Origin: Escherichia coli
GTDB lineage: Bacteria > Pseudomonadota > Gammaproteobacteria > Enterobacterales > Enterobacteriaceae
Assembly: GCF_001677475.2 (NCBI RefSeq)
Contig: NZ_CP015229.1
Reading direction: 5' to 3' (one strand)
DNA length: 64,000 bases
Positions 4,252-4,460 of the stretch are shown here, piece by piece. Each line of letters starts with the position of its first letter. Within the stretch, counting starts at the first letter, position 1. The notes under the pieces were generated by a model. That model saw nothing but the letters and a program-made list of their open reading frames with translations. It was not told the DNA's origin and searched no databases. A program made the position numbers and the translations under genes.

Positions 4252-4460
4252 GCACTTTCCCTGTGACAATGATACAGTCCAAAATAAGCTTTAATATTGT
4301 ATCCCTGATTATTCAGAAAGGCATGTCATAAAGAGTAAATATATTCTTAATTATTTAAATTAGTGATTTCACTCAAATACATTAGTTATTCCACTAATAA
4401 CAGATTGTTTTACCATTCACATATTAAATATAAATGATAAAACAATATATTCACATGATA

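Follow-up and report, generated by a model that had tools for sequence, protein, structure and literature searches.

The cas, bgl and leuO promoters of Escherichia coli are AT-rich promoters of accessory genes that stay silent in culture and are opened by over-produced LeuO (PMC6698644, PMC3950696), and in these respects they resemble the region studied here, the 209-bp gap between yfgJ and the adhesin gene sinH in a 64,000-nucleotide stretch of an E. coli genome (contig NZ_CP015229.1 of assembly GCF_001677475.2; this whole stretch is called the window, and coordinates refer to it). A further likeness is that in that class the upstream activator sites are placed about 60–70 bp from the start. 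Its footprinted LeuO sites carry the core ATATTCA-N5-TGAATAT, whereas the best match in the sinH gap shows three mismatches; in addition, H-NS repression has been demonstrated for the class, whereas for the sinH gap we infer it. At most of the sites that it controls in E. coli, LeuO acts both as an H-NS co-regulator and as an H-NS antagonist, with about 78% of LeuO targets being also targets of H-NS (PMC6698644).

The closest described system is the iatB promoter of E. coli SMS-3-5 (Goh et al. 2019, mSphere, PMC6714894), which is found in the same der-yfgJ-209-bp gap-sinH-sinI-large adhesin order as here, IatB (WP_012311748.1) being the orthologue of SinH. This protein was undetectable in wild-type SMS-3-5 under all the culture conditions tested, a transposon screen on a chromosomal iatB::lacZ fusion covering around 30,000 mutants yielded only leuO-activating insertions, and the over-production of LeuO increased the iatB transcript about 15-fold (PMC6714894). 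Neither promoter elements nor a start site nor a role for H-NS are defined in that work. SMS-3-5 carries a different allele class from that of the window, with nucleotide identities of 83% for sinH and 67% for sinI, and the two gaps are 91% identical in the promoter-proximal half and 73% in the distal half. The large adhesin is 73% identical between both strains, compared with 97–99% for the core genes, and this divergence of the insert genes is consistent with old allelic classes or with diversifying selection on surface proteins.

The Salmonella counterpart is sinH (sivH), which belongs to the CS54 island (Kingsley et al. 2003), in a bamB-der-yfgJ-sinH-sinI-BIg21-repeat adhesin order and with a SinH protein 72% identical. 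A further E. coli inverse-autotransporter gene, fdeC (eaeH), is reported to be under H-NS and temperature control (Easton et al. 2014); it shares the protein class with SinH, lies at a different locus and is a lead by analogy. On its side, sinH has been reported as co-transcribed with sinI and as up-regulated in human urinary infection (PMC12525524, PMC9937491). The gap analyzed here, at 4252–4460, belongs to the 'ila' locus and corresponds to a promoter region of sinH/iatB that has been studied before (PMC12525524); it is an ordinary AT-rich, LeuO-responsive and probably H-NS-silenced adhesin promoter.

Results

Among 1697 complete E. coli genomes, the sequence at 4252–4460 corresponds to a single-copy, chromosomal intergenic gap without annotation. 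Its neighbors, both encoded on the minus strand, are sinH (= iatB; 2074–4251), for an intimin-like inverse autotransporter of 725 amino acids (Pfam IAT_beta, E = 1.6e-108), and yfgJ (4461–4676), for a double zinc-ribbon protein of 71 amino acids (Pfam Zn_ribbon_6) that is present here as a divergent, insert-linked allele. The RefSeq annotation of the closest complete genome, 23AR0806, with 99.3% identity over 3900–4800, was used as a source for the assignment of sinH. Because both genes have the same orientation, the gap (minus strand) is downstream of yfgJ and upstream of sinH, and it is nearly certain that it constitutes the sinH 5' regulatory region, together with the 3' flank of yfgJ. A first-pass annotation of the window, made from the sequence alone, had located the region between yfgJ and an adhesin gene, and both genes were rightly named, the adhesin being SinH with its IAT_beta domain.

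The same annotation had described about 190 bp of strongly AT-rich sequence, and the base-composition scan agrees with it. The G+C content was 23.0% over 4270–4460 and 25.4% over 4252–4460, and when compared with all 191-bp windows over the 64 kb (mean G+C 52.6%, standard deviation 5.0) the segment 4270–4460 showed a z value of −5.9. The G+C minimum of the 64 kb is 21.5%, at 4281–4471, the next separate low being 31.9% at 60842–61032, and in 100-bp steps the values drop to 19–24% from 4300 to 4499. A composition like that of the neighboring core intergenic regions had been named as the observation that would speak against a special region; instead, the gap had the lowest G+C content of the 31 intergenic regions measuring 40 bp or more, as set by mapping the genes of two annotated genomes onto the window, with 34.8% for the second and 40–50% for most of the regions.

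With 75–77% A+T over 191–209 bp, against 47% for the window mean, the gap is as AT-rich as an H-NS-silenced promoter is expected to be. The 500 bp centered on it show 64.0% A+T, essentially the maximum of the window, and all the 500-bp windows with at least 61.4% A+T, which is the mean of the H-NS peaks from chromatin immunoprecipitation (ChIP) (PMC2094087), overlap the gap. TpA steps are three times as frequent as in the window (13.4 versus 4.1 per 100 bp), and CpG is absent. As for the A/T tracts that had been ascribed to the region, A/T runs are indeed present, but they are mixed runs of up to 16 nt and not homopolymeric ones, with a longest homopolymer of 4 nt. Signals of phase variation were also searched for in the gap, and neither GATC sites nor homopolymers of at least 6 nt were found.

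The size and composition of the gap are kept in other genera. In 16 alleles from Escherichia, Pseudocitrobacter and Superficieibacter its length was 197–236 bp, mostly 205–212 bp, and its G+C content 21–30%, with sequences largely unalignable outside two blocks. The gap of Citrobacter freundii has 205 bp and 24% G+C, and that of Salmonella, which the cross-genus scan by peptide words missed and which was found through a protein search and contig look-up, has 345 bp and 34% G+C overall, distributed as a G+C-rich first segment of around 120 nt and an AT-rich remainder of 225 nt. In Salmonella enterica, the G+C-rich segment, to which the greater length is due, is palindromic, resembles a repetitive extragenic palindrome (REP) and follows directly after yfgJ; neither this REP-like segment nor the 345-bp length is shared by the window. 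The fixed gap length hints at a constraint on geometry, not only on composition, and the low G+C content kept during sequence turnover gives the impression of a promoter property under selection and not of a relic of composition.

The identity between the gap of the window and those of distant genera was 33–42%, near random for such composition, and on this background two blocks are invariant across six genera: an upstream element that we call Box 1 (4335–4350) and a TAnAAT hexamer (4296–4301). The alignment of nine divergent representatives contained 16 invariant columns, with a run of 5 and with 9 of them within 17 columns, at Box 1. These values were never reached in 200 dinucleotide-preserving shuffled and realigned sets, in which the maxima were 7 invariant columns, a run of 2 and 3 within 17 columns. 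The shuffle control removes relatedness, which is acceptable because the background identity is near random. Box 1 and the hexamer are separated by 33–34 nt in 14 of the 18 sequences (11 of the 16 scored, plus E. albertii, through a second TAGAAT recognized by eye, Salmonella and C. freundii), with exceptions in Escherichia sp. MOD1-EC7003 (42 nt), Superficieibacter sp. (45 nt) and Escherichia sp. E1V33, where no match to the box pattern was obtained.

The hexamer reads TACAAT in the window (4296–4301, minus strand) and is a predicted sigma-70 −10 element, found as TAnAAT in all the orthologues and as TATAAT in Salmonella and Citrobacter. Its T, A, A and T are invariant and its fifth base is conserved in at least 90% of the sequences, a pattern proper to a sigma-70 −10 hexamer, and it is located 41–44 nt before a conserved ribosome-binding site and ATG; a transcription start near 4289 (minus strand) is predicted. 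In three ortholog alignments, the ATG of sinH at 4251 and its ribosome-binding site are conserved, the Shine-Dalgarno region (AGGGAAAG; 4255–4262, minus strand) being a few bases upstream of the ATG, with CAGGGA conserved in most orthologues. A consensus promoter scan (9-of-12) of 3900–4900 gave no match, and no −35 hexamer was found 16–18 nt upstream of the −10, where the best sequence by inspection, ATGCCT, matches three of six positions and is not conserved. The lack of a consensus promoter fits a weak, regulated promoter, and the gap probably holds a weak, activator-dependent sigma-70 promoter, whose start would be near 4289 and which would have a site for a factor at about −46 to −62.

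This putative factor site is Box 1 (TTAAGAATATATTTAC in the sense direction; 4335–4350, minus strand), a conserved element of 16 nt placed upstream of the predicted start, at about −46 to −62, with the consensus TTTWRGAATnyATTTAG. Positions T4349, T4343 and the ATTTA at 4340–4336 are invariant in the six genera, and the pattern has a single match in the 64 kb. In SMS-3-5, Box 1 reads TAATGATATATTTAT, without the G of the TARGA half that is present in the window, and in Salmonella it reads TTTTTAGGAATATATTTAG, within the AT-rich 225 nt of the gap, followed by a 33-nt spacer and a perfect TATAAT located 43 nt before the ATG. Box 1 is a candidate site for an activator or a counter-silencer.

The left half of Box 1 (TAAGA or TAGGA) fits by inspection an RcsB half-site in 13 of the 16 alleles, and is missing in SMS-3-5 and E. 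whittamii; that half-site appears as TTAGGAA in a crystal structure (PMC5829831), and the RcsAB box contains it as TaAGaa (PMC3950696). The complete boxes for RcsB, RcsAB and BglJ-RcsB were rejected and are kept only as a lead, as the right half of Box 1 is ATTTA and not TCYNA (the boxes compared were TN(G/A)GA-N4-TC(T/C)NA for the homodimer and TaAGaa followed by tatTCctA for RcsAB). Motifs for CRP, Fur, Lrp, IHF, OmpR, PhoP, CpxR, PmrA, SlyA and sigma-E, compared by eye with Box 1, were not convincing either. Candidate factors could be an RcsB heteromer, through the left half (TTAGGAA/TAAGAA), or LeuO bound to an unusual arrangement of half-sites.

The silence in culture and the LeuO induction of the orthologue fit H-NS silencing. 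The first-pass annotation had regarded the region as typical of H-NS-silenced promoters, and this claim is partly supported, by a composition such as H-NS prefers, by the position at the 5' region of an accessory adhesin gene and by the silent and LeuO-induced state of the orthologue, but it finds no backing in matches to the H-NS nucleation motif or in hns insertions. On balance, the sinH promoter is likely H-NS-silenced. Mutants in hns grow poorly, and StpA can substitute for H-NS, which tempers the lack of hns insertions in the screen.

Several results weigh against this silencing. The screen with iatB::lacZ returned no hns insertions (PMC6714894), which is unexpected if H-NS is the sole silencer. 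The high-affinity H-NS motif tCGATAAATT was not found with up to two mismatches in 4252–4460, the nearest match being at 3878–3887, within sinH, although this nucleation motif (Lang et al. 2007) is supportive and not obligatory. In the literature searched, no reports on H-NS binding to the sinH locus or on its behavior in hns mutants were found. As regards the promoter itself, no terminator was detected between yfgJ and sinH in a scan of 3900–4900, and sinH may also be reached by read-through from der-yfgJ.

LeuO sites were also searched for in the gap. The 19-bp core of LeuO (Fragel et al. 2019), ATATTCA-N5-TGAATAT, was rebuilt from K-12 following the description in PMC6698644, from the only perfect 7-N5-7 palindrome of the K-12 casA-cas3 gap (ATATTCA-TACTG-TGAATAT) and a near-twin upstream of leuO. 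The best matches within the sinH gap, at 4413–4431 and 4294–4312, have 3 mismatches out of 14, a level of up to 3 that is reached by 16% of the shuffles of the gap; the first of them is a weak palindrome, ATATTTA-N5-TGAATGG, with no strand assigned. In five or six orthologues, matches with two mismatches share one position, some 30 nt past the stop of yfgJ. As the best site of the window is not significant on its own, LeuO may act indirectly.

Part of this evidence could also be explained by a plain weak promoter dependent on an activator, in which the AT-richness would serve promoter mechanics (contacts of the UP-element type, easy melting, sites for LeuO or another activator), the silence would reflect the lack of the activator and H-NS would play no role. 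Such a promoter would account for the −10 conserved without a −35, for a conserved box at about −46 to −62, which is the position of a class I activator or UP element, for the exclusive recovery of leuO-activating insertions with none in hns, and for the absence of the high-affinity motif from the gap. However, the 60 nt or so that separate Box 1 from the −10 would be enough for it, whereas the content of 21–30% G+C extends over all 209 bp in every genus; LeuO usually works on H-NS-repressed targets, and 75% A+T over 200 bp is well above typical H-NS-bound DNA. We consider this explanation unlikely, being nevertheless the strongest of the competitors of the silenced promoter.

It was also considered that the region could be mainly an RNA element, such as a hairpin or terminator in the 3' untranslated region of yfgJ, a small RNA or a small protein, and not a promoter. 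A long AU-rich inverted repeat with 24-nt arms and a 5-nt loop is found at 4399–4451 (minus strand), starting around 10 nt after the yfgJ stop. It is nearly perfect as minus-strand RNA when G-U pairs are counted, and it is because of these pairs that it pairs better as RNA. The minus-strand RNA of this allele folds with −56.2 kcal/mol, better than its shuffles (z = −3.6). However, the hairpin is allele-specific, as the consensus fold has −4 kcal/mol and only 8 pairs, and as a general element it was discarded for being significant in this allele and not conserved in the others. No intrinsic yfgJ terminator was found in the scan, the sole hairpin being AU-rich and devoid of a G+C-rich stem and of a U tract. 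Rfam searches at a permissive E-value gave only sub-threshold noise from eukaryotic miRNA and snoRNA families, none near its gathering score (the best hit, to a eukaryotic miRNA model, had 28.6 bits versus a threshold of 90), and the small open reading frames of the gap encode only 21–24 amino acids, with no signal of conservation. All this makes an RNA element quite improbable as the main role of the region. Two 18-nt direct repeats, TAAATTAGTGATTTCACT and TACATTAGTTATTCCACT, separated by 22 bp (4356–4395, no strand assigned), were also detected in the gap, partly conserved in the alignment and only within Escherichia.

In K-12, xseA and yfgJ converge with a 4-bp overlap and without insert, whereas here three genes and the gap are found between them: the very large adhesion-domain gene, the end of which occupies the window up to 927, sinI (1042–2019) and sinH, all on the minus strand. 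It is precisely from the yfgJ stop codon onward that the sequence resembles K-12, and therefore the gap is wholly part of the insert. The insert-type junction was found in about 1750–1791 of 5426 complete E. coli genomes (around 33%), and the overlap of the K-12 type, representing the empty site, in 3668 of them (around 67%). This presence/absence polymorphism at a fixed chromosomal site is what an island should show. By contrast, the insert genes do not have the atypical composition of an island: the window has 52.6% G+C, and sinH has 45–50%, sinI 52% and the final part of the large adhesin gene 55%. Between xseA and yfgJ there are only these three genes, and none for an integrase, a tRNA or another mobility function. 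The flanks of the insert grade into diverged sequence, and a sharp, repeat-bounded junction was not seen.

The window and K-12 are strongly diverged in three places: at the 3' end of xseA, in the N-terminal half of yfgJ and in the yfgJ-der spacer. The insert-linked yfgJ is a mosaic with respect to K-12: its C-terminal half is identical in 38 of 40 amino acids, with around 88% nucleotide identity, and its N-terminal 31 amino acids are around 39% identical; the yfgJ-der spacer is diverged too (4461–4738 compared). The divergence of yfgJ and of the spacer means that the truly variable segment begins at the xseA 3' end and reaches as far as the der stop, with yfgJ behaving as part of the module. 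The der-yfgJ-gap-sinH-sinI-large adhesin order was also found in other Escherichia species, Salmonella, Pseudocitrobacter and Superficieibacter.

The first-pass annotation had taken the region as horizontally acquired and its AT-richness as support for an island. The first part holds in that the insert is polymorphic in presence or absence, and does not hold for a typical recent island, into which composition, mobility genes and junctions do not fit. The second part is not supported, considering insert genes with 45–55% G+C, the lack of mobility genes and the cross-genus synteny: the AT-richness is limited to the gap and is not evidence of foreign origin. That the low G+C content could be a relic of low-G+C donor DNA marking an island boundary, without regulatory meaning, would agree with the absence of the gap from K-12-type genomes, with the K-12 similarity starting exactly at the yfgJ stop and with the 33% to 67% distribution of insert and empty site, but it is very hard to believe and already largely refuted here by the composition of the adjoining genes, the missing integrase, tRNA or other mobility gene, the flanks diverged from K-12 (xseA 3' end, all of yfgJ and the yfgJ-der spacer), an equal arrangement, gap length and G+C content in several genera despite sequence turnover, and two invariant blocks that denote purifying selection.

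The genes near the gap are all on the minus strand (large adhesin, sinI, sinH, yfgJ, der and bamB), with der at 4739–6211 followed by bamB. In C. freundii, a yfgJ-like gene with Zn_ribbon_6 is found 205 bp upstream of sinH in a different neighborhood, in which the genes further upstream encode a major facilitator superfamily transporter and a GFO_IDH oxidoreductase, and not der/bamB; yfgJ and sinH thus seem to move together. In E. coli E69 and in E. albertii, the 2.5 kb preceding yfgJ did not include der; this stretch has 35–37% G+C and in E69 contains a gene for an AlpA-family regulator, which suggests that der and yfgJ are separated there by another mobile insert. Short contigs from a Collinsella metagenome-assembled genome and from a Rhizobium wenxiniae assembly carry sinH fragments 96–99% identical to the E. 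coli gene, and these are almost certainly E. coli contamination.

Two further differences between strains were noticed away from the locus. An IS3-family insertion sequence is located at 22240–23650, between sseA and timP, with an HTH_28 orfA of 184 amino acids and an orfB with the rve integrase core of 279 amino acids, both on the minus strand. SMS-3-5 and 23AR0806 lack this element and have a gap of around 340 bp between sseA and timP. The hcaR-hcaEFCBD operon (37654–42897) is present in the window and in SMS-3-5, and missing in 23AR0806, where hcaT abuts yphA.

Discussion

The account that we favor, and hold as reasonably probable, is that the gap is the regulatory region of sinH, with a weak promoter that would be silent in ordinary growth and opened by an antagonist or an activator. 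In this account, sinH is the first gene of the sinH-sinI-large adhesin cluster inserted between xseA and yfgJ. The promoter-proximal half of the gap would hold a weak, probably activator-dependent sigma-70 promoter with the TAnAAT at 4296–4301 and no recognizable −35, giving a leader of around 37 nt with the conserved ribosome-binding site; Box 1 precedes this −10 by 33–34 nt. The nucleoid proteins H-NS and StpA coat DNA of such a type as is found in the whole 209 bp and in the initial 660 nt of sinH, which are moderately AT-rich. The promoter would then be kept silent in ordinary growth and opened once the antagonist or activator is made, LeuO being the factor experimentally implicated, and another factor may act at Box 1. 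Within this account, the composition, position, gene context and conservation are shown by the present analysis, and the silence in culture and LeuO induction of the orthologue by the literature, whereas we infer where transcription starts, what Box 1 does and that H-NS occupies the gap.

A bolder proposal, to be taken as a tentative one with less in its favor than the account above, is that Box 1 could be the operator of a dedicated activator or counter-silencer that would have controlled sinH since before the split of Escherichia, Salmonella, Citrobacter, Pseudocitrobacter and Superficieibacter. The length of around 209 bp and the low G+C content would then be a geometric requirement of a complex between nucleoid proteins and the activator.

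What is added here to the known promoter region is modest, namely a promoter model conserved across genera and made up of Box 1, a 33–34-nt spacer and TAnAAT. Among the proteins of extraintestinal pathogenic E. coli, SinH is a vaccine-antigen candidate, and it adds fitness in urinary-tract infection models (PMC9937491, PMC12525524). As it is not detectably made in culture, the position of its promoter and what opens it bear on the timing at which the antigen is displayed. If Box 1 were the operator of a dedicated factor, it would offer a testable way to approach how the expression of this vaccine candidate is switched on within the host.
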